In this document: in pieces, positions 4,226 through 52,418 of the stretch | Numbering within the stretch: position 1 is the stretch's first letter | Layout: the number at the start of each line of letters is the position of its first letter | Virus record (IMG/VR): IMGVR_UViG_3300036846_000061 | Span: 1-52,418 of that record | DNA: 52,418 bases | Reading direction: 5' to 3' (one strand) | Source: a virus | Taxonomy: Duplodnaviria; Caudoviricetes | Notes under the pieces: model-generated | The model's input: only the letters and a program-made list of their open reading frames with translations | What the model was told of the DNA's origin: nothing | Database searches by the model: none | Made by a program: the position numbers and the translations under genes

Positions 4226-4257
4226 CTAGATTATAGTTTTGGTCAAGGAGTAAGCAA

Positions 4258-4800
4258 ATGAGTGATCGCGCTCAAGAACGTCGTGACGATCGGGCTGGCC
4301 CTGAGCAGCAGGCTTATCAGCCATATGACTCTGCTACTTTCTTTTCAGTTGGTTTTCCTGGAATGAAAAGTACAGCTATGGATGATAATGTCGAGAGTTG
4401 GCCTTGTGGAACTGAGTCTGATTTCGGAACCGTAGTGACTAAAACTGTTGGTCCTACTGGATCGCTTCTAGTAGAGAGTGGTGGCACTGGAGATGTTGCT
4501 GGCATCGCTCTACATGATCACATCATCGCTACATACGGTCATTACTCTCAAGGAATGGCCGTATCAGTAATGACTCGCGGTCGTGTATGGTGTGCAGTTG
4601 ATGGTGCTGGCACTGGAATTACTTATGGTGCTCCTGCCAGTTTCAATCCGGCAAACGGCAAACTAAGTGCTTCTGGAACTGCTGTTCCTAATTCATCGTT
4701 CAGAGGAATGGTGAATGGCTTCTACGATATGCTCACAGGAACAACAATTAATATTGTTGAGGTTGAGCTACACTATCCATTTGCTGTAGCAGGTCCGTAA
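4258..4800 (+). CDS. Capsid decoration/cement protein
   Basis: Between scaffold and capsid genes; VSVMTRGRVW motif; AAGGAG RBS. Confidence 0.75.
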   Translation: MSDRAQERRDDRAGPEQQAYQPYDSATFFSVGFPGMKSTAMDDNVESWPCGTESDFGTVVTKTVGPTGSLLVESGGTGDVAGIALHDHIIATYGHYSQGMAVSVMTRGRVWCAVDGAGTGITYGAPASFNPANGKLSASGTAVPNSSFRGMVNGFYDMLTGTTINIVEVELHYPFAVAGP

Positions 4801-8295: not shown

Positions 8296-8705
8296 CAACA
8301 TCATTCCGTAAGTCATTCAAAGTATTGAGACGTAGCCTGGGCTATTGGGAGGAAGGTAGATACTTTCCATCAGATAATATTGGACTTCCTGAGCAAGTAA
8401 TGGCTACTGTTCAAATGCCATCTACTGGCGATATGATGAAAATAGAAGTTATGCCTTGGGGTAAGCGCGCGGCAAGATACATAAAGATATATACTGATAC
8501 TAGATTGAATTGTGTAAATCAACGAATTGCCAACACGCGCCAGGAGTATCCAGGAGACATCTTCTACTATGATGGTTCCGAATATTTATTGTTTGGTGAA
8601 GCTGACTTTACTATGTTAAGTCAAACTAGAAAGACCCAAGTATCTCATTGGCGTTATTATGCTTGCGAATTGATCGAGGGATCGAAATTGGAGATGATTA
8701 ATTGA
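8292..8705 (+). CDS. Head-tail adaptor/closure protein
   Basis: Position; GYWEEGRY, IKIYT, HWRYYA motifs. Confidence 0.65.
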   Translation: MTTSFRKSFKVLRRSLGYWEEGRYFPSDNIGLPEQVMATVQMPSTGDMMKIEVMPWGKRAARYIKIYTDTRLNCVNQRIANTRQEYPGDIFYYDGSEYLLFGEADFTMLSQTRKTQVSHWRYYACELIEGSKLEMIN

Positions 8706-9298: not shown

Positions 9299-10128
9299 CC
9301 AGTCTAGTAGACTTCAGTAAGCCCGAACAAGGCATGGCGCTTACTGCTGATGTGCGCAGTAATTTTGAAATTATATTCAATGAGATTAGCGCGCTTCAAG
9401 ATGCAATGGCACTCATACCACCTCCCAATGATGGACTAACTCAAGACGATGCTGACCTACGTTACTTGCAACTAACTGGCGGAATTGTAAATGGCACATT
9501 ACAAATAAATAGTCAGGGCGGTCTTAGTGTTGGCCCTGATACTATGAATACATTTAATCTTTATCCAGGATATGATCCTGCAACTAATCCAGCAGTATTA
9601 ATGGTGATGGGAGCGGCTGGCTTTTTAATTATGGTTTCTGGTCCTATAGCTGTAACTCACGATCCTGTTGGACCTATGGAGATAGCGACTAAACAATATG
9701 TAGATAACAATGCTGGACTGCCTTTAACTGGTGGCATACTTACTGGTCCTCTAACTATAAATTCTGATACTGATCCTACTCTATATCTGTCGAGCACAGG
9801 AGCCTGGCCAGGAGTAGTGTTAGATTGTGTCGCTGGACAAGGTGCTTATTTTTATGCATCTATAAATGGTCTGGCTCGTTGGAATATAAATTGGATCGGT
9901 GCTGGCGCTGAGACCGGTGCAAATGCCGGATCAGATATGAATATTAGTCGTTATGCCGATGATGGCTCGTTAATTGATATTCTATTTACAATTACTAGAG
10001 CAACGGGATTGATTACTATACTTGCTGATCCCATTGATCCTCTTGGAATTGCAACAAAACAATATGTAGATAATGCAGTGTTACCACTACTAACCAAGAT
10101 TGCCGAACTAGAAGCAAGGCTTCACTGA
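9295..10128 (+). CDS. Fibre-like protein located in the neck region
   Basis: YLQLTGG and DP..P..IATKQYVD repeats shared with the spike and tail fibres. Confidence 0.7.
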   Translation: MTSLVDFSKPEQGMALTADVRSNFEIIFNEISALQDAMALIPPPNDGLTQDDADLRYLQLTGGIVNGTLQINSQGGLSVGPDTMNTFNLYPGYDPATNPAVLMVMGAAGFLIMVSGPIAVTHDPVGPMEIATKQYVDNNAGLPLTGGILTGPLTINSDTDPTLYLSSTGAWPGVVLDCVAGQGAYFYASINGLARWNINWIGAGAETGANAGSDMNISRYADDGSLIDILFTITRATGLITILADPIDPLGIATKQYVDNAVLPLLTKIAELEARLH

Positions 10129-15527: not shown

Positions 15528-16512
15528 TAGAACATATCGTTTGTTAGTTGGAAAGAAAGGTGAGACTCAAGGTATAGAGATCACAGACTCATTGCGTATT
15601 CAATTTGATATTGAAAAGACTGCTAAGAAAAATCCTAATAAGAGCACAATCAAAGTATATAATTTGAAGAAAGAAACAAGAGCAGAATTTGAAAAACCAG
15701 ATACTAGAGTTGTTTTATATGCTGGATATAAAGATGAAGCCGGAGCAATATTGATCTTTCAAGGTAATGTAAGTTATGCATGGTCAAAGAAAGATGGACC
15801 GGATATCATTACGGAATTTGAACTTGGAGATGGTGCTCAAGAAATCCGTGATACGACAGTATCAGTTGGTTACGGCAAAGGTATTAAATCAACTCAAGTT
15901 CTCAATGATGTCTCCAAACAGATGGGGTTGCCGTTAACATTACCCAATGACGCTCCCACTAGAGTATGGAATAATGGCCTATCATTTCATGGACCTGCTA
16001 GAACTTTGCTAGACAAAGTTACTAAAGGAACTGGATTGGAATGGTCTATACAGAATGGAAACTTGCAAGTAATAGAACATGGAATGGTAACAACTAGACA
16101 AGGAGTATTGATTGCTCAAGATAGCGGAATGATAGGTTCTCCTGAAAGGGAGCGATTGGCCAAAGCTCATACTCATGCTAAAGGAACAGGCAAGACTGTT
16201 GGTCAACCTATTATAGAGCCTGATTATGATGGCTGGAAAGTAAAGTCTTTGCTTATGCCTATGCTTAGTCCTGGTGACCGAATTAAGTTAGAGGCAATGT
16301 TTGTAAATGGGGTGTATAGAATAGAACAAATAAAACACAATGGAGATAGCGATGCTTCTGGCGATTGGCAATCAGAGTTAAGAGTTGTTGATCCTAGGAA
16401 ACCAATTAAAGATACTGCTTCTAAAGCAACTACCCAGAGAGGAACAATAAGCGATAACAGCGATGAGTTTGATATGGTAGATGAAGGAGTATTGCTCTAT
16501 GCTGCGGCTTGA
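15499..16512 (+). CDS. Baseplate hub protein
   Basis: [32 protein letters not shown] motifs. Confidence 0.8.
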
Positions 16513-18730
16513 TTTAACAGAACTAATTGAGCAGCAAGTAGAGGTTCAACTTGGCAATACTCTAAACACGAGTATGCCTGCCAAGATCATTAGTTATAAT
16601 GCAGCAACAAATCGTGCTGTTGTAAAGCCTGTTTTGCCTAAGCGCCTAGCAAGTGAAGAGCCATTAGACTCACCACAAATTGTAGAAGTTCCAGTTGTAT
16701 TCCCTGCTTCTGGTGGTGGTAAAGCAAGTATGACTTTTCCACTTAAGCCAGGTGATGGAGTTATGCTATCTGTACAACAACGATCATTAGAAGGATGGTT
16801 GGACGGCAGAGAAACAATGCCGGATGATCCTCGGCAATTTGATCTTTCTGATAGTGTAGCCATCGCTGGTTGTCAGCCTTCTGGCATTGTGGGCGATCCT
16901 GACCACGTTGTTTTAAAATTTGATAAATGTACTGTTACTCTAACAAATGATAATAGTGTAGTAGTAGCAACGGAGAAGGCCAATATACTTGTAGACAAAG
17001 ATGGCAATATAACTCAGACAGCACAACAAGCTTATACTGTTACATCTAATGCGATTACTTTGGGCGGTCCGATGGGGGATCGCGCTGCGCCTCCAGGCAA
17101 TATACAAATTAACTCGCATCTAAACTTATCACAGCATCCTATAAATCCATGGGAAGCAACTCCAAAATCTTATGTTGATAGTATAGCTGGAAGTGGATTG
17201 CCAGGACCACCTGGACCGCAGGGCCCAGAGGGACCGCAAGGTGAAGTAGGTCCACCAGGGCCGACTGGCCCGCCAGGAGCAGATAGTACAGTTCCAGGAC
17301 CGCAAGGACCACAGGGTAATACTGGACCTGTTGGACCTAAAGGTGATACTGGACAACAAGGCCCAACTGGTAATACTGGACCGGAAGGCCCACAAGGACC
17401 AATAGGTGATACTGGTCCGCAAGGTCCACAAGGCATACAAGGTATACAAGGGGAAACTGGCGCTGATTCTACTGTTCCGGGTCCGGTTGGACCGCAAGGA
17501 CCAATAGGTGATACCGGACCACAAGGGCCACAAGGCCCACAAGGAGATACTGGGCCTCAAGGCCCACAAGGTATAATTAATGAAGCTCCAACAGATGGAC
17601 AGGCATATGGTAGAGACAATGCTGATTGGACACCAGTATTAAAACTAATTGGTGGGCAATTAAACGGTGCATTAACTATTGGCACTAATACTTTGGCTTC
17701 ACCTCTTGTATTGAATGGTGATGTAGGACAAAATCGCACTATTTGGTTTAATACTGCTGGGTCCGCGCGTTGGGAGTTTTCTGCTAATTCTGCTCCTGAG
17801 AGTGGCGGTAATTTCGGTAGTGATTTTCAAATTGGTCGTTACGATGATAATGGTTCTGGCATTGGATATATATTTGGTATTACTCGTAATACTGGACAAG
17901 TTTGGGTTGGTAATGGATTAAGTATGGGCAATAGCGTGATGTCCTCGCCCACTGACTTATCCCATCATTTATCAATGTATAGTGATAGCTATGGCATCAA
18001 CGTTACAGACAACACTATAAACTTTGTTGCTGCTGGTTATCTTACTTTTAGTGTAAGTCCAAATTATGCTTCGGTCCCTGGCCGTTTACATATTGATGGT
18101 GGGCTTGATTTTGGTGCTAGAGTTGCATCTGGCCCGACTGATGTAACACAGCATATTGCATTGTTTGATACTTCATATGGATTTAGCATTACTGGCGGCA
18201 CCTTAAATATAGTCAATGGTGGCAATACTTCTTTTTATAGTTATGGAGTTAGAGATGCACATATTGACTCTAATGGTTTAACATTAGATCGAGGGAATGT
18301 TCTTCTGCTTGGTGATCCTGGATTGCCATTACAGGCCGCAACGAAACAATATGTTGATACTAATCTTGGTAAATATTTGCCATTAATTGGTGGCGACCTT
18401 ACTGGCAATCTAGATATTTATTCTGCTGGTTTAAGAGTTTGGAATGGAACAATTTATGTTCAAAATGATTATGATGCTTATGTGGATATACAGGGGCCTG
18501 CTGGTGAGTTCTATTTTGGTGTAGATGCTACTGGCTTTTATCTTTATTGCGGAACATATGCATTACGATTTTCATCTGCTGATTGGCAATGGACATATTT
18601 AGCTCCAGTTATATTGTGGGCTGATCCTGTATTACCAATGGAAGCTGTAACAAAACAATATGTCGATGCTCTTGCTGCTAGAGTTGCAGTATTAGAGAAT
18701 GCTCACTCGCAATGGGACGTAGGAGTATAA
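16499..18730 (+). CDS. Baseplate spike (Gp138/gpV-like N-terminus) fused to collagen repeats and fibre modules
   Basis: VPVVFP..G...TFPLKPGDG...R.FDLSD N-terminus, then Gly-X-Y run, then ATKQYVD modules; AAGGAG RBS before 16499. Confidence 0.82.
17201..17572 (+). repeat. Collagen-like Gly-X-Y repeat region
   Basis: GPQGP repeats with a duplicated GADSTVPGP interruption. Confidence 0.9.
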
Positions 18731-25644: not shown

Positions 25645-27087
25645 TCAAATATCTTCTGTCAAGAACCTTTGTATATCAATTATGCTACGGAAATATTGTG
25701 ACTTCATTTGTTTCGACTTCAACGCTAACAATAACCGATGATCTATAGTTCTTGGAACTATAATGTCATGATATGTTACTTTGTTCTCCTGGCCGATACG
25801 ATGGTTGCGATCCTCAGCTTGTATCCTGTCAGTAGATGACCATACATTACTATAGAATATTGTAGTTGAGGCTTCGTTCAATGTAAGCCCTGTGCCGCCA
25901 GAAGCAACAGTAATAACCAATGCTTTACATTCTGGTTCTTGGCGCCAGCGTTCTATTTCAGTGAGTCTCTGAGAGCCTTCGATCCGAGACGATACCCCTA
26001 CTGCCCGGATGCGTTTTGTAGCTAGCTCTGAAATAATTAGGTTAACGTCCATTATAAAGCGACAGAATATAATTACCTTACTAGAAGCATTCTCAACTAT
26101 CTCTGCAACTAGGCTAGCTCTATTGGACGGTATGATCTCTGTGGCTTTAGGATCATCGCTAGTATTGACATGACCGCATAATACTTGTTGTAACCGTATC
26201 ATCTTTGTTATTGCCATAGTTGCATCGACTAGTTGACCAGTCTTTAGTTCATATAATAGTTCTTGTTGTAGTTTGTTATAGATATGAGCTTGTTCCTTTG
26301 TCATATCTATTTCATTAGTGACATAGACTTTATCAGGTAAATCTAGACAATCTTTCTTGCGCTTCTGATACGCAAATGGAGCGATCCTGGAAGCTAACAT
26401 TTCCTCATTACGATATCCAACAATTTGTCTAAAGATTTGCCCACTCTTGATTTGTCTTTGATCCTCTATACAATACATACTCTTGAAAGCAGTATAGGAA
26501 CGTAATCCAATAATGTTTATATCAAGGAACCTAAATTGAGAGTATAGACCTTGTATACCTTCCTCTGCTTCTGTTCCTGTAGCTATGCGACGTATCTTGG
26601 TAAAATTGGCTAACTCTATTATTGCTTTTGTTCTTTGAGCAGTAGGATTTTTGATCTTATGACTTTCATCTATTGCCATATAGGTCATGCGCCGCGCCAG
26701 GAGTATTCGCTTGAGGTAGTTCTTGCCTCCTTCAGAAGACAAAGCTTCAATGTTCATTAGGAATACAAGTACTTTACCTGATTCCAATATAGCTTTAGTC
26801 TCTGCCTCTTTCTTTTCTATAGACATACCGGAACGCCATACTTGTATTCCCCATTTGTCATAGTTGGGAGGCCCATGTTTAAGAAACTCTGCCTTCCAAT
26901 TTATATGAACATTATTGGGCGCTATAATGACGACGCAATTGATCTCCTGGCGCTCTATCAGATTGACTACCTCGTGAACTATAATTGCACTCTTGCCTAC
27001 ACCCATCTCCATGAAGTATGCAAAGCCCGTTCTATAGTTTGCTTCTTGTATAGCTTCTTCTTGATGTTTATAGAGTGGCGGACTCAT
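25645..27087 (-). CDS. SNF2-family helicase
   Basis: MEMGVGKS, DESH, GGTGLTL, QAEDRNHRIGQ motifs. Confidence 0.92.
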   Translation of the reverse strand: MSPPLYKHQEEAIQEANYRTGFAYFMEMGVGKSAIIVHEVVNLIERQEINCVVIIAPNNVHINWKAEFLKHGPPNYDKWGIQVWRSGMSIEKKEAETKAILESGKVLVFLMNIEALSSEGGKNYLKRILLARRMTYMAIDESHKIKNPTAQRTKAIIELANFTKIRRIATGTEAEEGIQGLYSQFRFLDINIIGLRSYTAFKSMYCIEDQRQIKSGQIFRQIVGYRNEEMLASRIAPFAYQKRKKDCLDLPDKVYVTNEIDMTKEQAHIYNKLQQELLYELKTGQLVDATMAITKMIRLQQVLCGHVNTSDDPKATEIIPSNRASLVAEIVENASSKVIIFCRFIMDVNLIISELATKRIRAVGVSSRIEGSQRLTEIERWRQEPECKALVITVASGGTGLTLNEASTTIFYSNVWSSTDRIQAEDRNHRIGQENKVTYHDIIVPRTIDHRLLLALKSKQMKSQYFRSIIDIQRFLTEDI

Positions 27088-27506
27088 GGGTTCACCTTTA
27101 CTAGCCAAGATGGACAATAGACTTTGATTTCATTATTCATTATTTCAAATCTCACTTGTGTCGCTCTAATCATATTGACATTTGGTTCTGGCCAAAGAAC
27201 CTTATATGCTTCCAAGTATCCTAAATTCAAATGTATAATTTGTTTACCAACATTAGTTATATTGGCAATTAAACCACCAGGATCAGGTATCAAATATAAA
27301 CAAGCTTCATTACCTAATCCTTCTGCTACATGAAATCTTGCTTTATCATTCTCATTCTTTATGAATTGTAAACAAATATTTCTTGGAATGAAAATGTTTA
27401 GGACTTGCGAGCTTCCATGGCTGTTTATAGACATTAATACTCCTTTGTATTTATCTGGTCCTTTCCTAACATTATGTGTTATGATCTTGCGACTATAGTT
27501 ATCCAT
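27084..27506 (-). CDS. Hypothetical protein
   Basis: Coupled ORF within the operon. Confidence 0.6.
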   Translation of the reverse strand: MDNYSRKIITHNVRKGPDKYKGVLMSINSHGSSQVLNIFIPRNICLQFIKNENDKARFHVAEGLGNEACLYLIPDPGGLIANITNVGKQIIHLNLGYLEAYKVLWPEPNVNMIRATQVRFEIMNNEIKVYCPSWLVKVNP

Positions 27507-28245: not shown

Positions 28246-31038
28246 CTAGCTCGCGGACCCTAGGAACCTAAATCGGTCGATGTATACTCGCCTGCCTGAT
28301 CTTGCCATACCACCGAATATAAACCAATCGCCAATACTATGATCATTAAGTATTTGCAAACCTAATGATGGATACTTGAACCTTGATATAGTTGCATAGG
28401 CAGTGGCAGTATCATCCTCAATCAGTAAGTTTAGCCATTTATCCATCGGAACAACTACATTGTTACGCTGCACTAAGAACATAGTTTCATTAAGTGATCT
28501 TTCGTTTCGATGCACAATCTTTGCCATTAATGTAATTGGACCCTCATAGTTATCAGATAGGTCAATTAGGTCTTTGCGAGGTACATGAATGATATTATAC
28601 TTCTTTGGGTCCGAAATTACTTCAGCAAAACGTTTCCTGCCTTCAAATATGTTATCAAATGGAGTTGTTATTTCTTTCGGCCATTTATATGGAACTCTCG
28701 CAGCGCGCGCCAGGAGTATATCTTGAGCCTTACGGAAACCAATGCCCTTTATATTTACAAGACCGCCTAGGAACGATCCATCTGCATAGCTCCAAGTAAC
28801 ATCGCTCTTGTCTAGATCATAAGTAACAAATGGATAACCAGCACGATCCAATTCGCGCAAGTAACGTTTGATAGGTTCTTCAAATGATAAGTTTCTAATA
28901 TTGGCTAATGCAAACTCAATAGGATAGTGAGCCTTGAGTATACAACAAAAATAAGATAGCATACCATAAGCCACAGCATGAGACTTATTGAAAGCCCAAG
29001 ACCCCATTTTATTGACACTATCCCATATCCTCCTGGCCGTAGCCTCATCGATGCCCTGTGACATCGCACCAGTTCTAAACCTCTGCCAGAAACGATCAAA
29101 GTATTCAATACCAAAAGACTTAGACATAGCTTTGCGTAATGTGGAGGTATCTTCCCATGATAACAAACCAATCTCACGAACGCAATTCATAACTTGTTCT
29201 TGATAAACTATAACTCCATACGTGTCCTTAGTATAACGTTCCATAGATGGATGGATGTATTGGGCTTCTTGTTTGCCCATTCGTCGTTGGACCCACTCGT
29301 TACTGGCGCCAGAAGCGAATGGCCCTGGTCGAGCAAGAGCAGTAAGACAAGCTATGTCATCGAAACGATCTACAGTCAGTCTCCTGGCTAGGGTCTGCAA
29401 AGCTTGACCTTCAAACTGGAAGATACCGCAGAACTGAAACTTACGCAATACTTCAAAAGCTTTGTCATCATCTAAAGGATGATTTAGTAGATCACTATAC
29501 TTCCAACCTATAGCCTCTAGACAATCAGCAATTATAGTTAATGTCTTGAGACCTAGCGCATCTATCTTCATCAAATTGATTAGTTCGGCATCGTATTTGT
29601 CTATGTGAACTGTGTTAGTCTTTACATCCTTAGCTACATAATTGATAAGAGGCTCATTAGTTATAATGACACCGGCCGCGTGCTTACCAGTAGTATGTGC
29701 ATGGTTCTCTAGTTCTCCTGCAATAACCATAGCAGGATACTGTTCAATAAATCTTTGTCCAATCTCTAGTTCCTTGAACGTATCAAGAATACATAATCCT
29801 GCTCTTGAGTCTCCACTGGACCTCTTGAGCATTGAGTCCTTTAGTGCAATAGTATCATTGTCAGGTATCCTTAATGCTTTGGCTGCCTCTCCAATAGCTG
29901 ACTTGGGCTTATATCTTAGTATGGTTCCCAATCGCGCAACGTTCTCACTGCCATACTTATCTTGTATATACTCAAAGACCATTTCTCTTTTATTGTCTTG
30001 AAAGTCTATGTCAATATCCGGTAGATCATATCTAGTAACATCAATAAACCTTTCAAAGATAAGACCATGAGGGAGAGGATCAATATCAGTAATGCCAAGT
30101 AAGTAACACACGAGACTACCACAACTAGAGCCGCGAGCCGGTCCGACCAACATGTGTTGTTTAGCATATCGCACCATGTCTGTTATGACATAGAAGTAAT
30201 CATCATATCCTTTGTCGCTGATAAGTTTAAGTTCATAGTCTAGTCTGTCTTTGTATACTTGATTTAACTCTAGTCCACGGCTCCTGGCGCCCAAGAGACA
30301 CATATCTAGTAATGATATATCAGACTTATATTTGATATTAGTTGCAGTTTGTATAGTGGCATCACATTCTTCCGCTAGCTTGTCCGCCAGGAGAAAAGCT
30401 TGATCATCTATTTCCATTTCATTACGCAAACTCCATTCATCCATAATATACATAGGGGATGGTCGGTCATTGCGAAACTTCCTGGCCAATATTTGATAGA
30501 TAGAACGATCCTCTGCACTGATCATATAATTGTCAGATACTGCAACAATCTTTCCATCCTTTAGCAGCATACCTAATGTAGAAGGATGTCCCTCCCTATA
30601 TACGCGTGGCCCGATCTTAACGCCCTGTCCTAGACCTGAGTTACCTGAGAGTATAATGACATCTTTACTGAAACCATTAAGTCTTATGAAAGGTAAACGT
30701 AATATTGCATTGTAAGTATTCTCTGATGCTTCCTCTACAGCTGAGTATAGTTCTTTGAGTCCTGAATTAGTCTTGGCTATCAGTGATATCCAAAATATGT
30801 TTTGTCGCTTTTCACGAACATTTATATCTCTGACAAAAGCCATTTCGATCCCGAATAATGGCTTAATGCCGGCGGCTGTACATTGCTTAGACCATTGTAC
30901 ATGGCCGAATGTTGAGTTCTTATCAGTAATGGCCGCTGCTTGGCAACCTAGTTCTTGTAGTCTATTTATGACTTTGGGAATGGGCCCGTAGGCCCACCCA
31001 AATGAGAACTCAGTTCTTATCTTGAGTTGGGTCCTCAC
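28246..31038 (-). CDS. dnaE: DNA polymerase III alpha subunit-like (family C)
   Basis: PHP-like N-terminus, GPARGSSCGSLVCY, FERF, PDIDID, HAAGV, KIDALGL, FNKSHA. Confidence 0.95.
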   Translation of the reverse strand: MRTQLKIRTEFSFGWAYGPIPKVINRLQELGCQAAAITDKNSTFGHVQWSKQCTAAGIKPLFGIEMAFVRDINVREKRQNIFWISLIAKTNSGLKELYSAVEEASENTYNAILRLPFIRLNGFSKDVIILSGNSGLGQGVKIGPRVYREGHPSTLGMLLKDGKIVAVSDNYMISAEDRSIYQILARKFRNDRPSPMYIMDEWSLRNEMEIDDQAFLLADKLAEECDATIQTATNIKYKSDISLLDMCLLGARSRGLELNQVYKDRLDYELKLISDKGYDDYFYVITDMVRYAKQHMLVGPARGSSCGSLVCYLLGITDIDPLPHGLIFERFIDVTRYDLPDIDIDFQDNKREMVFEYIQDKYGSENVARLGTILRYKPKSAIGEAAKALRIPDNDTIALKDSMLKRSSGDSRAGLCILDTFKELEIGQRFIEQYPAMVIAGELENHAHTTGKHAAGVIITNEPLINYVAKDVKTNTVHIDKYDAELINLMKIDALGLKTLTIIADCLEAIGWKYSDLLNHPLDDDKAFEVLRKFQFCGIFQFEGQALQTLARRLTVDRFDDIACLTALARPGPFASGASNEWVQRRMGKQEAQYIHPSMERYTKDTYGVIVYQEQVMNCVREIGLLSWEDTSTLRKAMSKSFGIEYFDRFWQRFRTGAMSQGIDEATARRIWDSVNKMGSWAFNKSHAVAYGMLSYFCCILKAHYPIEFALANIRNLSFEEPIKRYLRELDRAGYPFVTYDLDKSDVTWSYADGSFLGGLVNIKGIGFRKAQDILLARAARVPYKWPKEITTPFDNIFEGRKRFAEVISDPKKYNIIHVPRKDLIDLSDNYEGPITLMAKIVHRNERSLNETMFLVQRNNVVVPMDKWLNLLIEDDTATAYATISRFKYPSLGLQILNDHSIGDWFIFGGMARSGRRVYIDRFRFLGSAS

Positions 31039-36970: not shown

Positions 36971-37978
36971 CTATTCTTTAGGCACTATGTAACCTGCTCT
37001 AGTAGACTTGAACTGTTCACGCATCTCTGGAGTAGCCTTCACCAGAGTATCATTTATGAACGTTCTTTCCCCAGTCTTATAGTGACGCCAATGTCCCATT
37101 CTTATATGTGCAACAGGACTAGCGTGATGTCCACCTTGACTAGTATGTCTATCGTGCGGAGAACGGAGGAATGTTGTTATGTATTCCTCACTCCGCACTT
37201 TTGTATAGGGCGGTATTATTGGTTTCTTGTTCTTGAGGCGAGCCTTGTTAAGTTTATCATTAGCTCGTATTGTTTCTTTAGGTATGCCCCTAGTATTGAG
37301 TAGCAATAGAGCAACCATAAACGGCTCTATTACATTGGCCGCTGCTGCTTCCATAGCAGCACGTGGGCCTTCCTCAAGACCAACTTCTTTAGCATAACTA
37401 TCCCAGAAACGTTGCGGGAAACGAAACTGTACTGGCGCTACATTACAAGCATAAGCTCTACCTGGCTCCAATTCAACATTAGCCATAAATCTTGCTCTGT
37501 CGCCTACACCTAGTATTATCATGTCTTTTACTTTGAAAGGCTCTATAGATACAATCTCAAAGTCGCAGGCAATAGCCTTTCCATCTATTGGATACGGATG
37601 CACCAGATATATAGAACAAGAAGCTTCTTGGCCAAACTTCTCATCTATTATTGGATCGCTCCAAGTATGGAAGAATATCCAAGGTGTAGTAAACGGATGA
37701 CCTAATGCTCCTTCAAGATATAGTTTACTTGCTCTAGCACTTTGTTTCTTGATAAATTCATTAGGCCAGTGACCAAAATCAAAGAACTTTCCTGCAGATA
37801 CTGCTTCGGAAAGCATATCTACAATAGTGTCCAGTTCTCTTGGAGATGGCATGTGATCTATTTCAGTTCCTGGTCCTGAACCTAACATTCCCGCTAGTGC
37901 TAGATCACGAAACTTCGCAGGAGTAATGCTAGTGACATGTACATCACTAGCATTGGTCTCCCATACATACTTTTCCAT
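36971..37978 (-). CDS. Hypothetical protein with C-terminal HASP.AH.R.GHWR motif
   Basis: About 335 aa; shares the early-cassette RBS. Confidence 0.75.
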   Translation of the reverse strand: MEKYVWETNASDVHVTSITPAKFRDLALAGMLGSGPGTEIDHMPSPRELDTIVDMLSEAVSAGKFFDFGHWPNEFIKKQSARASKLYLEGALGHPFTTPWIFFHTWSDPIIDEKFGQEASCSIYLVHPYPIDGKAIACDFEIVSIEPFKVKDMIILGVGDRARFMANVELEPGRAYACNVAPVQFRFPQRFWDSYAKEVGLEEGPRAAMEAAAANVIEPFMVALLLLNTRGIPKETIRANDKLNKARLKNKKPIIPPYTKVRSEEYITTFLRSPHDRHTSQGGHHASPVAHIRMGHWRHYKTGERTFINDTLVKATPEMREQFKSTRAGYIVPKE

Positions 37979-37999
37979 TGTTTCCATTCCTTTCTAGGC

Positions 38000-38022
38000 C
38001 GTATATACGGAGCGTATATACG
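38000..38022. promoter_or_regulatory. Tandem CGTATATACG palindromes (13-bp period)
   Basis: Copies at 38000 and 38013; same arrangement at 50594 and 50607. Confidence 0.6.
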
Positions 38023-38033
38023 CTCGTAGATAC

Positions 38034-38091
38034 CCAGCAGTGCTGGCGGAATAGGCGCCAGGAGTAAATGTCCTGGGCCCATTCCGTCAAG
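38034..38091 (-). repeat. Early intergenic stem-loop cassette, copy 1
   Basis: ACGGAATGGGC...GCCTATTCCG followed by CCAGC-n-GCTGG. Confidence 0.85.
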
Positions 38092-38299
38092 ATTGCGGTA
38101 AATACATTAATCCTTTCACCGTTACATTAAAGTAAGCAGGTAATGGATTACCTTTGCCGTATACTTTAACTTGCAAAGTTAGTTCATTTACAATAGACAC
38201 TTCAAGCCTTTGATCTCGCAACTGAAACTCTTTAGTATTAGATAAAGCGTGATGACAAATGTTTCGTATCAATAGCTTTTCTGGATTAGGTTTCCTCAT
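38087..38299 (-). CDS. Hypothetical protein
   Basis: GGAG RBS; early region. Confidence 0.6.
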   Translation of the reverse strand: MRKPNPEKLLIRNICHHALSNTKEFQLRDQRLEVSIVNELTLQVKVYGKGNPLPAYFNVTVKGLMYLPQS

Positions 38300-38301
38300 C
38301 G

Positions 38302-38526
38302 CTATTGTTCTCCATCGTGACCGACTGGTTTGGGCTCTTGTATTGTATAAGTCAATATGGCATTGTCATCATTCATATCTGTTATCCATCCTTTTACTGC
38401 AGGATAACAGAACTTGCCACATTCAGGACAATACATCGGTAGTCTTGGATTAACCCAACATAGTAATACATGACAACAATCCATATTCAATAATCTGAAA
38501 TGGACACGTTGCATTTCCTTAGGCAT
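38302..38526 (-). CDS. Small Zn-ribbon protein
   Basis: CC...C...YCPECGK; start at MPKEMQ. Confidence 0.6.
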   Translation of the reverse strand: MPKEMQRVHFRLLNMDCCHVLLCWVNPRLPMYCPECGKFCYPAVKGWITDMNDDNAILTYTIQEPKPVGHDGEQ

Positions 38527-38779
38527 ATTTGGGCTCCAGTTTACCTTCAACCAAGTAAGATACATCAGCGATCTTGTATTTATACTTCACTCCCTTATTG
38601 GTAGAATTATGATGGATGCCTATTTTGGTAAGCATTAGACCACCAGGCATTACAACAACATCAGGAGGCGAGTCAACCCACCTCAAGTTCACCAATTCTA
38701 GTTTATGTTGAAGTTTATCGGATGGCTTCGCTGATGGATCTTCAACGATGAGGGTGAATACCACCATATTGTCTTCCAT
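38519..38779 (-). CDS. Hypothetical protein
   Basis: Starts at the cassette RBS TAGAAAGGACGGAACAATG. Confidence 0.65.
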   Translation of the reverse strand: MEDNMVVFTLIVEDPSAKPSDKLQHKLELVNLRWVDSPPDVVVMPGGLMLTKIGIHHNSTNKGVKYKYKIADVSYLVEGKLEPKYA

Positions 38780-38860
38780 TGTTCCGTCCTTTCTAGACCC
38801 AGCATCAGTGCTGGCGGAATAGGCTACCAGGGTTATTCTCCTGGCGCCCATTCCGTCAAG
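38777..38860 (-). repeat. Early intergenic stem-loop cassette, copy 2, with RBS
   Basis: Same stems as copy 1 plus TAGAAAGGA..GGAACAATG. Confidence 0.85.
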
Positions 38861-38862
38861 AC

Positions 38863-39036
38863 TCATACCGATGGTCTATGCATCTTATCGTTGACTTGAG
38901 TAATTTCATCCAAGTCTAATCGTTTTATTTCAAGTTCTAATTCTTTGATCTTTTGATCTTGTTTCTTTACAATCTTCTCTAGTCGCTTCAATCTTTCCGA
39001 TAGCGTAGGTTGTTTCTTCTGTGGCGGCTTCCTCAT
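38863..39036 (-). CDS. 57-aa coiled-coil protein (MRKPPQKKQPTLSERLKRLE...)
   Basis: Hand-translated; AGGAG RBS. Confidence 0.6.
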   Translation of the reverse strand: MRKPPQKKQPTLSERLKRLEKIVKKQDQKIKELELEIKRLDLDEITQVNDKMHRPSV

Positions 39037-39047
39037 TATTGCTCCTG

Positions 39048-39473
39048 TTACTTGACGTTAAAGTCCAGTAGCATACGCATTAATGACTTCGCTTGTTCAA
39101 TAGGTAGTGTAGCATTGAATTGTATCTGAGCCGTATTGTCGTTCAATATCTTGAAGAACAAAGGATCAGGTTTAGATTGAACTTGCCTAATCTTTCCAGG
39201 ACTATACTTGACGATTGCAGTTGAACGTGCCAACGACTTTGCTTCCTTTGGCATTAGCATTGTTTCTGTAACGCCAAAGATTTGGCATAGTTTCTTGCGA
39301 AACTCTTTTGTTGGCGCTGTTGTAGCTTTCAACCAAGGATATACTGTTGTGCGAAGCCTATCTATGCCCAACAATTCATTGAGTTGCATTACTGTCATAT
39401 CGCGCTTACTCATTTCACTTCTTATTAGTGAAGCGATATGAGCATACTCTGGCTTAACTTTAGCTGTTGCCAT
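39048..39473 (-). CDS. XRE-family HTH transcriptional regulator
   Basis: MTVMQLNELLGI...TVYPWL.....P......LCQIFGV pattern. Confidence 0.75.
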   Translation of the reverse strand: MATAKVKPEYAHIASLIRSEMSKRDMTVMQLNELLGIDRLRTTVYPWLKATTAPTKEFRKKLCQIFGVTETMLMPKEAKSLARSTAIVKYSPGKIRQVQSKPDPLFFKILNDNTAQIQFNATLPIEQAKSLMRMLLDFNVK

Positions 39474-39474
39474 G

Positions 39475-39750
39475 TTACGCGACCTTACCTTTGATGAGCC
39501 TGAAGCGACTCACCACTGGCGTCTCACTCTTTTGCACTAGAGTATACCAAGCATCGCGATAAGCGACAGTTATAGTTTTGAAGCCATACTTATGCTTATC
39601 GCCCTGCTTAGAGGTCCAACACCATCCGGTCAGCATACGCAACTCATCCTTACCTCGATGATCGTTCCATCGCTTGGTCTCAGCTACATTGATGTAGTAT
39701 ATACGTGCTACCGCATCAACATCAGCAATTATGTTACTTGGTAACCACAT
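39475..39750 (-). CDS. Hypothetical protein
   Basis: ORF downstream of cassette copy 3. Confidence 0.65.
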   Translation of the reverse strand: MWLPSNIIADVDAVARIYYINVAETKRWNDHRGKDELRMLTGWCWTSKQGDKHKYGFKTITVAYRDAWYTLVQKSETPVVSRFRLIKGKVA

Positions 39751-39754
39751 TTTC

Positions 39755-39840
39755 CATTGCTCCTGTCCTTTCTAGGCTCCAGCACTATCACTGGCGGAAT
39801 AGGCCACCAAGATGTTACTCTCGGCGCCCATTCCGTAAGC
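39755..39840 (-). repeat. Early intergenic stem-loop cassette, copy 3, with RBS
   Basis: Inner stem varied to GCCGAGA/TCTTGGT while still pairing. Confidence 0.85.
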
Positions 39841-39869
39841 GATAGTATAGCGCGTTCTTAGCTCGCAGT

Positions 39870-40106
39870 CTAGCTGCTACAGTCTTCATAGCCAGCATTA
39901 GGCTCTTTTGTTGTCCAAGTATTGTCCACACGATTACAGGCAAATACTGTGAAGTTCGTATCATCCATTATAATGATACGATCTATATCATCATTAGCGA
40001 GACTATAAGATACAGCCTGTAACGCAGTCATCATATCTGCGTTCTTTACAGTATACTCATAGGCTCCGTCCAGATGATATAGAACAACAGAGAAGGTATC
40101 AGGCAT
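39870..40106 (-). CDS. Hypothetical protein (MPDTFSVVLYH...)
   Basis: GGAG RBS before ATG 40106. Confidence 0.6.
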   Translation of the reverse strand: MPDTFSVVLYHLDGAYEYTVKNADMMTALQAVSYSLANDDIDRIIIMDDTNFTVFACNRVDNTWTTKEPNAGYEDCSS

Positions 40107-40149
40107 ATTGTTCTCCAACCAATATTGTACTGCCCACGGAACGATTGAG

Positions 40150-40326
40150 TTATGATGTTTCGTCCAGCGGCTCATCGTGCCAGTAATTAGGGTCCGTGTG
40201 GACATCGTCACGAAACATCTTAGCTTTGCTAGGCCAGCAAGCCTCGCAGGCGAAACAAAGAAAGATTTGTCGCGCATCATAATGTGGTGTGCGATGTAGC
40301 TTGCTCCCACAATTACATTCGTCCAT
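40150..40326 (-). CDS. Small Cys-rich protein (MDECNCGS...YDARQIFLCFACEAC)
   Basis: Starts at the cassette RBS. Confidence 0.65.
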   Translation of the reverse strand: MDECNCGSKLHRTPHYDARQIFLCFACEACWPSKAKMFRDDVHTDPNYWHDEPLDETS

Positions 40327-40417
40327 TGTTCCTGTCCTTTCTAAGCCCAGCACATCGCTGGCGGAATAGGCGGCCAGAAGTATTCTCCTGGCGCCCATTC
40401 CGTTAGCCTTGCTGTTA
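40324..40417 (-). repeat. Early intergenic stem-loop cassette, copy 4, with RBS
   Basis: Same conserved stems. Confidence 0.85.
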
Positions 40418-40486
40418 TGTCTTCCAAATTAACCAAAGAGCAAGTAACCCTATGGCTAGCACTGCAACCCAATTTATACTGATCAC
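40415..40486 (-). CDS. 23-aa hydrophobic peptide (MISINWVAVLAIGLLALWLIWKT)
   Basis: Hand-translated; GTGA overlap with the upstream stop. Confidence 0.45.
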   Translation of the reverse strand: MISINWVAVLAIGLLALWLIWKT

Positions 40487-40701
40487 AACTCATACTCGTC
40501 ACAGGGTTCATATGCATCATCGTGAATAGCGAATGGCTCCATGCCTTGCTCTTCACGTTTGATGTTGATTATGTTCATACAATTTCTGCACACAGGCTCT
40601 TTCTCACCAGTAAGTGCACGTGTTGATGGCACTCGCACTGGATTGAAACTGAACTGCTGACGACAGCAGACACAGTAACCCATACAAAACACATATCCCA
40701 T
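40483..40701 (-). CDS. Small Zn-binding protein (C..C...FSFNP..VPS...EPVC..C)
   Basis: Starts at the cassette RBS. Confidence 0.65.
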   Translation of the reverse strand: MGYVFCMGYCVCCRQQFSFNPVRVPSTRALTGEKEPVCRNCMNIINIKREEQGMEPFAIHDDAYEPCDEYEL

Positions 40702-40806
40702 TGTTCCTGTCCTTTCTAGATCGTAATTGACTCCCACACTTTGTTCTCAAAAGAGCCCAATCCCATATTTGGGGACCATTGGGTAAAGCGTGGTCATAAC
40801 GTCAAT

Positions 40807-40884
40807 CCAGCAGAACGCTGGCGGAAAGCGTATATACGCTAGTATATTCGATCGTATATACGCTTTCCGTTAGCCTTGCTGTTA
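40807..40884 (-). repeat. Early intergenic stem-loop cassette, copy 5 (inner stem built from CGTATATACG)
   Basis: CGGAAAGCGTATATACG...CGTATATACGCTTTCCG then CCAGC-n-GCTGG. Confidence 0.8.
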
Positions 40885-41163
40885 TCCTGCATCTTTTAAG
40901 TATGAATTAACCAAGTCATCTGCGAAGCTAGTCGCATCCGCTCCACGATACTCACCGCTATGATGGATTAGATACTCGACAAAATTGTCTTCATCCTTTT
41001 CCATCACAACGATATAATAGAGCGGATTGTTCTTATCAGGCGACAAATCGAACGTCATCCTGGTAAGACTGATCGCATCATCGAGCGATCCACGCCAGCC
41101 CCAATTGCCTTGGTTCTCAATTGGATAGTCGCAGATGAACTCTGTGAGTTTATATTCCATCAC
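40882..41163 (-). CDS. Hypothetical acidic protein
   Basis: AGGAG RBS; early region. Confidence 0.65.
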   Translation of the reverse strand: MMEYKLTEFICDYPIENQGNWGWRGSLDDAISLTRMTFDLSPDKNNPLYYIVVMEKDEDNFVEYLIHHSGEYRGADATSFADDLVNSYLKDAG

Positions 41164-41348
41164 ACTCTACTCCTGCGAGCGAAAGTGCGCGGTGCCTTGA
41201 CTTCCCTCAGCATTCCGATAGCTTGATCAAGATGGTAATATGTTTCCTCAATTGGCGAATGCATATGGATATTAGTAACATTGCCAATTTCGTTCTTGAT
41301 CTTGCAAAGGGCATCAAGCCATGCCTCTTTCTGTTCTTTAGTCACCAT
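41160..41348 (-). CDS. Hypothetical protein
   Basis: Starts at TAGAAAGGAATGGAACAATG. Confidence 0.65.
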   Translation of the reverse strand: MVTKEQKEAWLDALCKIKNEIGNVTNIHMHSPIEETYYHLDQAIGMLREVKAPRTFARRSRV

Positions 41349-41436
41349 TGTTCCATTCCTTTCTAAGCTTGTGCTTTCCTCTGCGTTAGGGACTGGGAAC
41401 CCGGTATATACTCGCGTATATACGCCGCATTAAAGC

Positions 41437-41475
41437 TAGAGCGCCAGGAGTTATATTTGTTCTCCTGGCGCTCTA
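41437..41475 (-). terminator. Hairpin formed from two opposed CGCCAGGAG motifs
   Basis: TAGAGCGCCAGGAG...CTCCTGGCGCTCTA just after the stop of the 41482-41973 gene. Confidence 0.6.
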
Positions 41476-41973: not shown

Positions 41974-42199
41974 AATATGTAGCCTTTCTAGGTTTGGGTC
42001 TGCGTTTTGTTTTCTGGGCTTCCCACCAGCACGTATATACGAATGTATAGACGCGGCCGCATTAAACAACGTGTACAATCCCGCCAATGGCTACATACAC
42101 GCTGCCCCTAGAAAGGAACAACGGATCATCCAGCGGTATATGGGAAAGTATATACGCATCCATATTCGCTCGATGTAGACCAGATTAACTATATATCAT

Positions 42200-42800
42200 A
42201 CTCACATACCGGCTTGCCGCCCTAGGGGCGCGTATCCTGCCCGCTCTAGTGGCTTCCCGTATGCTTTCGTATATACCGTTTCAAAGAATGGCGGATGTAA
42301 GGAAAAATCGGCCTAGGCGCGACCCAACTAGCTGGTCTGGGCTGGCGCTTTCGTCTAGCGCGCCAGGCAATCTTGACGATTACCTGCCCTTATCGCTTCC
42401 CTGACTACCCTGGCGGAACCTAGTGGGTTCCTATGGGCGCCTAGGCTCTAGCGCCTAGCCTAGTGGCCTACCCTACGGGGAGGCGCCTAGGCGACGCTAG
42501 GGAAGCTCTAGAGGTGCCCTACGCGGGCGCCTCCGAGCCTCCGAGATGTCCTATTCTCCTGTCAAACAACGCGAGCAGAAATTCGTTACGGCCCCGATCG
42601 GGCTGCCCTCTAGACCACCGATCTAGGGATAGTCTAGCCTATCCCATCTTGGAAGTAAAGCCCAAACTTATGGGGTTCAGTCTTTTTATTTAGACGGTCT
42701 CAAGGACCGCTCCTGGCGCCAGGAGGAAAAGACCTGCCATTTCCTGGGCCTAGGATGCATGCTAGGGTGGTTCTAGTCTTGGAAGGCTAGGGTTATGCAG
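42200..42800. other. GC-rich non-coding region dense in CTAG/CCTAGG/GGCGCC palindromes
   Basis: No credible ORF; includes the perfect palindrome CTCCTGGCGCCAGGAG at 42710-42725. Confidence 0.6.
42631..42659 (-). promoter_or_regulatory. Putative early promoter TTTACT-N17-TAGACT
   Basis: Points into the early gene array; shares TTTACTTCCAA with 50701. Confidence 0.55.
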
Positions 42801-42951
42801 CCCGAAACACGTTCGCGTTTGTTCTCCCCCTGTTCCCGTTACGTTCTGCCCAATGATTTCAATGACTTACGGGCCATGAACGCTAAATTTTTGGTAATCT
42901 GTAACGCAGGCTACTGACTGGTAGTTCTCTGTTTGTTCTCGTTTGATGACC

Positions 42952-42983
42952 AAAAATACTCCTGGCGCCGAAGCGCCAGGAGT
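42952..42983 (-). terminator. Intrinsic terminator
   Basis: Minus strand ACTCCTGGCGC-TTCG-GCGCCAGGAGT-ATTTTT (UUCG tetraloop plus U-run). Confidence 0.85.
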
Positions 42984-51076: not shown

Positions 51077-52418
51077 TGTATGATGGATTTGATACTGACT
51101 CTGATCTAAGACCGCAACCAGGTCCACAAGAACAATTCTTGTCTACTGCTGCCGACATAGCTATATATGGAGGTGCCGCTGGAGGTGGTAAGACTTATGC
51201 TCTACTGCTTGAGCCTTGTCGTCATATTGATAATGCTGACTTCGGCGCTGTCATATTTCGTCGCGAGGCTGTTCAAATCACTTCTGAAGGAGGTTTGTTC
51301 GACACCAGTTTCCAAATATACGAGCGTATAGACGGCACTCCAAGACAAAGCCCATATAAGATGTGGACGTTTACTAGTGGCGCCACTATAACGTTCAGCC
51401 ATCTTCACAATAACCACGATGTAAATGACTGGCAAGGATCACAAATCCCGCTCATTGGATACGACGAACTCACCCATTTTACTGAACAGCAATTTTGGTA
51501 TATGTTGTCCCGCAATAGGTCGATGTGTGGTGTTCGACCGTATATACGTGCGACATGTAATCCTGATGCTGACTCTTGGGTTGCTGATTTGGTGTCTTGG
51601 TATATTGATCAAGATACTGGTTATCCTTTGCCCGATAGGTCTGGCATCATACGTTATTTTATTAGAACAGACGACAAAATGATTTGGGCAAATACGCGCC
51701 AGGAGTTACTATGTAAGTTCCCTGGATCACTGCCGAAATCATTTACATTCATCCCTGCTACTCTTGAAGACAATGTTATTCTAAACAATCAAGACCCAGA
51801 CTACCGCGCTAATCTAGAGATGATGACTAGAGTAGAACGCGAGCGTCTGTTACACGGTAATTGGAAGATTAAACCTACAGCTGGTTCTTACTTCCCACAG
51901 ACTTGTATAAATATAATCCCAGCCGAACCTACCGATGTAAAGGTTTGGATTAGACGTTGGGATTTGGCAGCTACAGAGCCCAGTGAAGTTAGTCCATCGC
52001 CTAGTGCTACCGCATCAGTGTTAATGGGTCGCAGAGAGAATGGCAGATTTGTTATTGCTGATGGGATTAATATACGGCGTAACGCTTCTGTGGTGCGTGA
52101 TATATTGTCTGCTACTGCTTCACAGGATCGAAGCAAGTATAGGCGAGTTACAACAGTCGTGCCACAAGATCCAGGACAGGCTGGAAAAGATCAGTCAGCA
52201 TCTATCATCGCTTTCCTCGCAGGTTATAAGGTTAAATCTATACGAGAAACAGGACCCAAGATTACTAGAGCAGAACCTTTGTCTGCCCAATGGCAAGCCG
52301 GAAATGTTGACATAGTAGATGGTCCGTGGGTCCGGGATTACTTGAAGGAAATGGCTGCGTTTCCTGAAGGTGATCATGATGATTATGTCGATGCTAGTAG
52401 TGGTGCCTTTCTTGAGTG
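51076..52418 (+). CDS. terL: Terminase large subunit (463 aa across the circular join)
   Basis: Hand-translated: PQPGPQEQFL, YGGAAGGGKT, YDELTHF, RATCNP, WDLA, QDPGQAGK; absent from the ORF track because the stop lies past the window end. Confidence 0.95.
   Translation, partial: MYDGFDTDSDLRPQPGPQEQFLSTAADIAIYGGAAGGGKTYALLLEPCRHIDNADFGAVIFRREAVQITSEGGLFDTSFQIYERIDGTPRQSPYKMWTFTSGATITFSHLHNNHDVNDWQGSQIPLIGYDELTHFTEQQFWYMLSRNRSMCGVRPYIRATCNPDADSWVADLVSWYIDQDTGYPLPDRSGIIRYFIRTDDKMIWANTRQELLCKFPGSLPKSFTFIPATLEDNVILNNQDPDYRANLEMMTRVERERLLHGNWKIKPTAGSYFPQTCINIIPAEPTDVKVWIRRWDLAATEPSEVSPSPSATASVLMGRRENGRFVIADGINIRRNASVVRDILSATASQDRSKYRRVTTVVPQDPGQAGKDQSASIIAFLAGYKVKSIRETGPKITRAEPLSAQWQAGNVDIVDGPWVRDYLKEMAAFPEGDHDDYVDASSGAFLE
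52292..52418. repeat. Terminal repeat copy (identical to 1-127)
   Basis: Exact sequence identity. Confidence 0.95.

Follow-up and report, generated by a model that had tools for sequence, protein, structure and literature searches.

The window analysed here, the whole 52,418-nt stretch, corresponds to a complete virus record and carries a direct terminal repeat of 127 nt (positions 1-127 are identical to 52292-52418). Structural genes are carried by the plus strand, and a leftward block extending from ~44313 to 25645 holds small open reading frames (ORFs) followed by replication genes. Between the early genes of this block lie five minus-strand copies of a two-hairpin element, termed type A, which is a real, strongly covarying mRNA motif that matches no Rfam 15 family. 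The order within each cassette, read along the minus strand, is stop codon, hairpin 1, hairpin 2 and then a leader containing the ribosome-binding site (RBS), with the stop codon located 0 to ~31 nt from the type A stem. Each of the five copies thus separates a stop codon from the RBS that follows it, on the coding strand of genes that would be transcribed polycistronically. The initial annotation had described five stem-loop cassettes and a sixth leader on this strand, and all of them are found where it had placed them.

The outer stem of hairpin 1 comprises 10 bp, CGGAAUGGGC/GCCUAUUCCG, including one G.U pair, and is topped by an inner stem and loop that are variable. Inner and outer stems are separated by a 1-nt bulge on the 3' side, which the folds of copies 1-4 and almost every aligned row display. 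Hairpin 2 (CCAGC/GCUGG) abuts hairpin 1 without a linker, and no intervening column appears in the model-fitted alignments. Hairpin 1 measures 16-17 bp (16 modelled pairs plus the bulge) and hairpin 2 measures 5-8 bp; the element would span two helical turns only if the two hairpins stack on each other, as is presumed here. The spacing from hairpin 2 to the leader is 4-6 nt in copies 2-4. Scores below refer to R1, a covariance model built from nine type A copies. Copy 1 (38034-38089; 60.1 bits, fold z=-6.55) begins with the triplet UGA that is also the stop of the upstream 70-aa ORF (38087-38299), and the orientation of its inner hairpin is flipped. Copies 2 (38799-38858; 83.4 bits, z=-5.81), 3 (39779-39838; 77.6 bits, z=-6.20) and 4 (40347-40405; 80.3 bits, z=-5.17) follow, copy 4 displaying the 10-bp outer stem with its G.U pair, the 1-nt 3' bulge, an inner stem of the GCGCCAGGAG type and the abutting hairpin 2. 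Copy 5 is a variant (40807-40872; 37.1 bits, E=2.3e-5, z=-4.65) in which the outer stem is CGGAAAGCG/CGCUUUCCG and the inner stem is formed by two CGTATATACG palindromes, with hairpin 2 next. For the five type A stretches and the region of the sixth leader the z-scores range from -4.65 to -6.55, and 0/200 shuffles were as stable. The sequence CGGAATGGGC occurs in exactly four copies, all on the minus strand (38077, 38846, 39826 and 40393), each with a partner arm 21-22 nt away. As had been proposed from the first inspection, the inner stems differ yet pair: CCAGGA/TCCTGG is found in copy 1, where the opposite arm carries the 10-mer GCGCCAGGAG, the stem of copy 3 includes G.U pairing, and that of copy 5 is built on CGTATATACG. 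The palindromic inserts assigned at the same time to copies 1 and 5 hold for copy 1, where two CGTATATACG palindromes, 13 bp apart from centre to centre, lie between the element and its leader (38000-38022). They do not hold for copy 5, which is separated from its leader by a non-palindromic minus-strand insert of ~89 nt (40718-40806). This insert contains a hairpin followed by a U-run at 40756-40778, with terminator-like matches; its fold is not significant (z = -1.69) and it has no Rfam match. Across the window Rfam 15 gave no match at gathering level, and only chance-level matches covered the type A copies at E<=10.

Two adjacent stem-loops also make up the put site of HK022, and type A could accordingly be read as a transcription signal, namely a terminator or attenuator, a put- or nut-like antiterminator or a promoter. 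TTGACG is present at the 5' edge of some copies, and a promoter-like TAGACT-17-TATACT that is kept in the relative G003 ends 6 nt before copy 3. The local sequence makes such a role highly improbable. No U-run follows any of the five copies, the sequence after hairpin 1 being CCAGC, and none of the five is in the minus-strand terminator list, in contrast to the true GCGCCAGGAG hairpin and U-run terminator at 42958-42983. Similarly, no promoter-like match overlaps a copy and such sites are not enriched (21 versus 15.2 +/- 3.8). A promoter composed of TTGACG and the loop was considered and rejected, the -35-like hexamer being variable (TTGACG, CTTACG, CTAACG). At least five copies are distributed along one operon, unlike put or nut, rather than one per promoter, and there is no Rfam match; the antitermination signals suggested by the initial annotation find no support.

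Pattern scans of viral and metagenome collections recovered type A in a small clade, in which R1 identified 28 distinct sense-strand copies from 12 sources at E<=2e-6, with additional palindrome-type variants at 35-40 bits. Most of the 37 loci of a loose pattern scan were single chance matches lacking an R1 match and were set aside, as were 4 of the 11 loci of the metagenome scan (L077, L078, L080 and L081), which are unrelated GC-rich coding DNA. In the alignment of the 28 copies, whose fitting to the structure model inflates the percentage and so tells against taking it at face value, 99.3% of 581 cells are paired, compared with 89.7 +/- 0.5% in shuffles (0/500 as high) and 24-44% with slid partners. 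Changes on both sides affect 15/21 pairs, and 44 double-change cells are observed versus 5.1 +/- 2.0 in shuffles; an earlier set of 23 rows gave the same covariation picture. Compensatory changes are visible in the raw rows, from GGG/CCU to GAG/CUC, from CGG/CCG to CGU/ACG and from CCAGC/GCUGG to CCAAC/GUUGG. The G.U or U.G cells number 54 versus four non-pairs, each G.U being an A.C mismatch on the opposite strand, and R1 scores at the same sites are 40-83 bits in sense and 21-37 bits in antisense orientation. Because of this excess of G.U cells and the much lower antisense scores, the type A fold is assigned to the coding (mRNA) strand. Within each phage the copies all share one orientation and lie inside an early region of 3-5 kb. 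The apical part of the element tolerates complete replacement as well as insertions of 46-47 nt, and the loops are not conserved. The conserved RNA element postulated at the outset is borne out by these compensatory changes, by the pairing and by G.U pairs restricted to the sense strand; a covariance model and virome search, the check then suggested, yielded distinct copies in which substitutions preserve pairing. No published description of type A was found in a literature search whose reach did not extend to motifs given only in the supplements of ribozyme papers.

The genes between the modules are shuffled. The gene encoding a 338-aa protein is placed between g6 and g7 in G003 and after g14 in the window, g6 and g7 stand in opposite order in the window and in G002, g13 comes after either g12 or g15 depending on the phage, and g4 is present only in the window among six phages. 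Islands of 80-91% identity span type A and leader alone, between unrelated genes; one of 108 nt and 87% identity, including type A, flank and leader (window 39751-39858), is surrounded by unrelated genes in the window and in G003. These comparisons support the view that the repeated module and leader, as homologies of 60-110 nt, would serve as recombination points through which gene cassettes are shuffled, and the modules would explain the shuffling of early accessory-gene cassettes. Gene order that differs among the six phages, with breaks at modules, is also what would be expected if type A acted primarily at the DNA level, as a recombination site or mobile cassette boundary resembling attC or the PeSL cassettes of T4-type phages. 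Such a primary role is nevertheless improbable. The compensatory changes and the 54 sense-only G.U pairs reflect selection for a fold that the coding strand adopts when single-stranded, ordinary homologous recombination between repeats of 60-90 nt suffices for the shuffling, and no integrase or recombinase was found among the ORFs scanned, which were a part of the total, attC core sites not having been searched systematically. Cassette swapping, as proposed in the initial annotation, is supported by shuffled gene order with breakpoints at the modules, which is also the outcome of its suggested comparison of gene content between repeats. As a selected function it is not upheld, since the strand-specific pairing makes swapping a by-product.

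The leader that follows type A, (C/U)UAGAAAGGA..GGAACAAUGG, provides the Shine-Dalgarno (SD) sequence and the start codon and is near-invariant. Its segment TAGAAAGGA has exactly six minus-strand copies within 37988-41365 and one plus-strand copy at 42109; with one mismatch or fewer there are 29 matches versus 14.95 +/- 3.72 expected, and 0/100 shuffles reach 29. All the leaders are on the minus strand: that of the 338-aa gene, AGAAAGGA..GGAAACAAUG, at 37976-37995, those after copies 2, 3 and 4 at 38777-38794, 39755-39773 and 40324-40342, that after copy 5 and its insert at 40699-40717, and the sixth at 41346-41364. A seventh, leader-like RBS with one mismatch (41982-41990) follows a twister-like element at 41992-42068. 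The AUG of the copy 3 leader opens a mini-ORF of seven codons (39733-39756, minus strand; eight codons in G002) that overlaps the start of a 91-aa gene, located 6 nt downstream in a different frame; initiation at the two may be coupled or overlapping. A scan of bacterial genomes with the leader 20-mer produced six single matches in unrelated taxa, estimated at about chance level, and gave no prophage or host clue.

Type A is not the only module that occupies the position before this leader. With leaders defined by one regular expression, a census of six phages gave 34 leaders: 20 are preceded by type A, seven by a twister or twister-like fold, four by a hammerhead-core pattern and three by other sequences, and in no case (0/34) are both type A and a ribozyme found. 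In the relatives, Rfam Twister-P5 has 11 matches at or above gathering, six of them distinct; further twister-P1 matches (E from 1e-8 to 3e-3) and two Hammerhead_3 matches (38.4 and 31.1 bits) are below gathering. All the twister and Hammerhead_3 matches are on the type A strand, several of them on the same short contigs. The sixth leader, that of g4, had been recorded as an RBS-only copy at 41346. Instead it follows a GCGCCAGGAG hairpin (41441-41473, minus strand), located after the upstream stop codon, and then a twister-P1-like fold (41373-41436, minus strand). This fold aligns with positions 3479-3542 of L006, the closest relative (twister-P1, 42.6 bits, E=2e-6), and its P3 is the CGTATATACG palindrome. 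A second twister-P1-like element, before the g3 leader (41992-42068, minus strand), has the T1 pseudoknot flipped to GGG/CCC and scores 24.1 bits in Rfam (E=0.13), below the gathering value of 67.2. In an alignment of 13 sequences that includes Rfam-scored relatives, T1 is paired in 39/39 cells with both-sided changes in 3/3 pairs, and seven different triplet pairs are distributed over the 13 elements, the window's GGG/CCC and UCC/GGA among them; P2 is 98.1% paired and P1 only 69%. Both window folds keep P2, P4 and T1. The two window folds, both below Rfam gathering, are structure-supported ribozyme candidates, as judged from the predicted pairing. The ribozyme-like leaders had escaped the initial annotation, as had the anti-leader described below.

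The exchange of modules can be followed gene by gene. From tblastn maps, the g6 homologue is preceded by type A and an insert in the window and by Twister-P5 in G005. The g5 homologue has twister-P1 before it in G002 and a hammerhead-core pattern in G004, and g7, which has type A in four phages, is preceded in G004 by a long near-perfect hairpin. Similarly, the g12 homologue has type A in the window and G003, replaced in G002 by a different two-hairpin module, type D (L068 sense 9760-9835; L005:~4240-4305), which consists of an outer stem of 5 bp, an asymmetric loop, an 8-bp GC stem GCGGCCAG and an abutting 4-bp hairpin GCCC..GGGU. The 338-aa gene is preceded by type A in 7/7 phages whose sequence includes the DNA upstream of it. 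Ribozyme leaders are preceded by a free hairpin of the GCGCCAGGAG type, which type A contains as its inner stem. By its distribution, type A appears to be naturally interchangeable with self-cleaving ribozymes in the leader slot.

Pistol, hatchet and twister-sister were found through the same kind of genomic association, and type A could on this ground be a new class of self-cleaving ribozyme, or a ribozyme-derived remnant that replaces twister. Positions 1 (U) and 3 (A) of the 5' flank do not vary among 23 distinct rows, and no Rfam family matches the element. Its anatomy speaks otherwise, and a catalytic identity is judged very unlikely. Nearly all conserved bases are inside Watson-Crick helices and the apical part is fully replaceable, accepting the insertions mentioned above, and a catalytic core is for these reasons unlikely; the loops are unconserved, those of hairpin 2 varying across the aligned rows, and neither a pseudoknot nor a junction can be seen. 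A helix that would close the element by pairing its two flanks was considered and rejected by eye, as it did not hold across copies. No match to twister itself (RF03160 / RF02684; core AAUGC.., GGUCCCAAGCCC loop, GAGGG) overlapped a type A copy at E<=10.

The reading to which about an even chance is given is that type A is a protein-dependent module for intercistronic processing and insulation, interchangeable with ribozymes. From the observed fold, strand, slot and mutual exclusivity with ribozymes we infer cleavage, a class of enzyme and a cut site as follows. The ribozymes in the slot would cut the early message so that the upstream piece ends in a stable hairpin, while on the downstream piece a compact fold would come first and then the standard leader. 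Type A would do the same job through a host endonuclease of the RNase III type, specific for double strands; such an enzyme is invoked because type A lacks an unpaired catalytic core, and its naming is more tentative than the processing and insulation role itself. An RNase III target comprises about two helical turns, and an internal loop or bulge limits cleavage to one strand, as described in PMC1540722. Hairpin 1, with its 16-17 bp, would stack on the 5-8 bp of hairpin 2 to give roughly that length, and the single-base 3' bulge would confine the cut to one strand, a position near the bulge being favoured. After such a cut the upstream mRNA would be closed off by the GCGCCAGGAG-type hairpin, and the downstream mRNA would open with hairpin 2 and the leader. 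The T7-like processing site offered as an example in the initial annotation receives only circumstantial support, with type A in the same slot and on the same strand as the twisters and hammerhead-core patterns and with an anatomy that would suit RNase III.

Several observations weigh against this proposal. Hairpin 1 alone is below the typical length of an Escherichia coli RNase III substrate, so that coaxial stacking has to be assumed, and RNase III would not accept two sister modules (among them type D of G002, with 5+8 bp), which are too short for it. The specificity considered may differ from that of the enzyme the phage would meet in its host, and the strong sequence conservation of the outer stem would be explained at least equally well by a protein or RNA partner that recognises sequence. 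The ribozyme side has its own weaknesses. Rfam gives no match at all for the window fold at 41373-41436. The CUGAUGA..GAAA patterns beside leaders draw no Rfam call at E<=1 and have U.U at positions 10.1/11.1, which served Perreault et al. (PMC3088659) as a criterion for rejection; for both reasons they are named only hammerhead-core patterns. An alternative candidate enzyme is suggested by the CCA that follows hairpin 1 in nearly all copies, namely RNase P.

The hairpins might also act without being cut, as a structural insulator or as a two-state switch of the SD sequence, which is judged unlikely. As an insulator, uncleaved hairpins would block exonucleases and the loading of Rho and keep the leader single-stranded. 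As a switch, the 5' arm (GGAAUGG) would mimic the SD block, and its loss or unwinding by a terminating ribosome would release the 3' arm CCUAUUCC to mask the SD. The heptamer GGAAUGG is indeed common to the 5' arm and the canonical leader, and the upstream stop codon of copy 1 is the first triplet of the element. In folding models the predicted pairing probability of the SD is 0.04-0.21 in the full element (six copies with the AGGAAUGG leader; 9/13 copies computed) and climbs to 0.31-0.75 if the RNA begins at the 3' arm. The changes in the outer stem are, however, compensated between its 5' and 3' arms and not with the leader, and the variants CGUAAU/AUUACG and UGAAUGG/..AUUCA weaken the alternative pairing. 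The leaders of copies 2-4 (AGGACAGG, AGGACGG) lack the heptamer, the stop-to-stem distance is variable (0 to ~31 nt), and the ribozymes in the same slot are left unexplained. Processing with insulation stays the preferred reading of type A. What twister and hammerhead ribozymes do in bacteria and phages is called an open question in a review (PMC6765202), and the array constitutes a natural substitution experiment in which the same slot, the same leader and sometimes the same gene are served by a ribozyme or by a plain two-hairpin signal. If type A is an RNase III-type site, the phage ribozymes would simply process the message between cistrons and insulate them, as a natural equivalent of engineered ribozyme insulators; if it is uncut, ribozyme cleavage would be dispensable and selection would act on something else, for example end structure or the blocking of Rho or exonucleases.

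At the head of the array, on the minus strand, is an anti-leader (42105-42125), the reverse complement of the shared RBS leader (..CCGUUGUUCCUUUCUAGG..). One anti-leader per array is present in 7/7 arrays examined, 10-50 nt upstream of the first twister-P1-like element; in relatives it lies at L067:~8331-8352 and also in L068, L069, L070, L071 and L058. Its interpretation as the leader of a divergent gene was rejected: the canonical start on the opposite strand is ACG in 4/7 and the open frames are short. Cleavage by the first twister would free the anti-leader as a small antisense RNA able to mask all leaders, and the invariance of the leaders might be explained if they are the target of a single antisense RNA. 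A scheme in which type A, as a new and very small class of RNA in twister's slot, cleaves or processes itself independently of protein and the anti-leader is supplied by the first twister, amounting to an all-RNA system that cuts and caps the whole early gene set and represses its translation globally, is a long shot.

Two motifs of the hairpins recur across the window. The 10-mer GCGCCAGGAG, often followed by TA, has 27 exact copies and 52 at <=1 mismatch versus 1.4 expected, on both strands. Thirteen copies are inside large ORFs without a hairpin partner and others form terminator and leader hairpins (sites include 1863, 7322, 8537, 18932, 23271, 26694, 28707, 42710/42716, 42959/42973, 45649 and 51696); it looks like a DNA-level motif reused as RNA stems. 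The palindrome CGTATATACG has 10 exact copies, at 38000, 38013, 40829, 40853, 41415, 42032, 50594, 50607, 50720 and 51539, and 18 at <=1 mismatch versus 1.13 expected genome-wide. It is often paired 13 or 24 bp apart and is apical in type A and twister folds as well as present near 50.6 kb, and is a candidate operator or promoter element.

The replication part of the leftward block encodes a DnaE-type polymerase (28246-31038), an SNF2 helicase (25645-27117), ThyX and an RNase T-like exonuclease. The single public sequencing run listed as containing the window is of DNA and is labelled soil metagenome. With DnaE and portal as queries, the closest isolates are phages of varied Gram-negative hosts with <41% protein identity, and a blastn search with the region matched no public phage genome. 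No tRNAs were found in the window, no Pfam families among early proteins g3-g15, and no phage RNase III or recombinase among the ORFs scanned, a subset of those in the window. The 338-aa protein (36971-37978, minus strand) resembles AcrVA2-like anti-CRISPR clusters in a protein atlas (score 0.98, of low recognition value), which is a lead only; it has no Pfam match, a PDB profile search gave none, and its AF2 model (pLDDT 37.5) is too poor for use. Its relatives were reached by an alignment-based search, a single-sequence locus search with the same protein returning nothing. An XRE-type helix-turn-helix gene lies at 39048-39473. A candidate mini-gene of ~23 codons (~40417-40488, minus strand) would encode a hydrophobic peptide and overlaps the stop of a 72-aa gene; its reading frame is uncertain, and it has short matches in G001 and G002. 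From the terminator at 42958-42983 to the first twister-like element, ~1 kb (~42000-42957) is without a convincing ORF and rich in G+C and CTAG, and might serve as a long 5' leader, as non-coding RNA(s) or as an origin. In the structural region, collagen-like GXY-coding repeats (17213-17580) are contained in a 749-aa ORF (16481-18730) that is probably a tail fibre.

Type A falls within a known kind, the intercistronic processing signals of phage early operons, the motif itself being uncatalogued. Its closest functional analogue would be the RNase III processing sites of the T7 early transcript, reportedly described by Dunn and Studier in 1973. Like type A, these are bulged hairpins that resemble one another and recur between cistrons of an early polycistronic mRNA, and in both an asymmetric bulge or loop would restrict the enzyme to one cut and leave the 3' end protected by a hairpin. 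In contrast, the two share no sequence relation, hairpin 1 of type A needs the stacking of hairpin 2 to reach two turns, and only the type A hairpins alternate with ribozymes in the same slots. RAGATH motifs, RNAs near genes associated with twister and hammerhead that were reportedly collected by Weinberg et al. in 2015, share the guilt-by-association context, although type A matched no Rfam 15 family. The closest evolutionary analogue would be the PeSL cassettes (PMC4122927; see also PMC2839356), which are likewise short conserved stem-loop repeats between small variable early genes and mark points of shuffling between related phages. PeSL are composite terminator and promoter signals in DNA, whereas type A has no U-run or consistent promoter hexamers, covaries in the manner of an RNA and comes with a fixed RBS leader. 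Type A marks indel or replacement breakpoints as PeSL do, and no sigma-70-type promoter is joined to it, the nearest being just upstream of copy 3. The closest contextual analogue would be the hammerhead and twister ribozymes that are clustered in phages and prophages, proposed in PMC3088659 to process long phage transcripts, a role left undefined for phages and bacteria in the review PMC6765202. As described there, small genes or short blocks are flanked by RNA modules on one strand, as in the window. Type A differs in having no known catalytic core and no Rfam 15 match, and it replaces ribozymes in arrays in which true twisters also sit.

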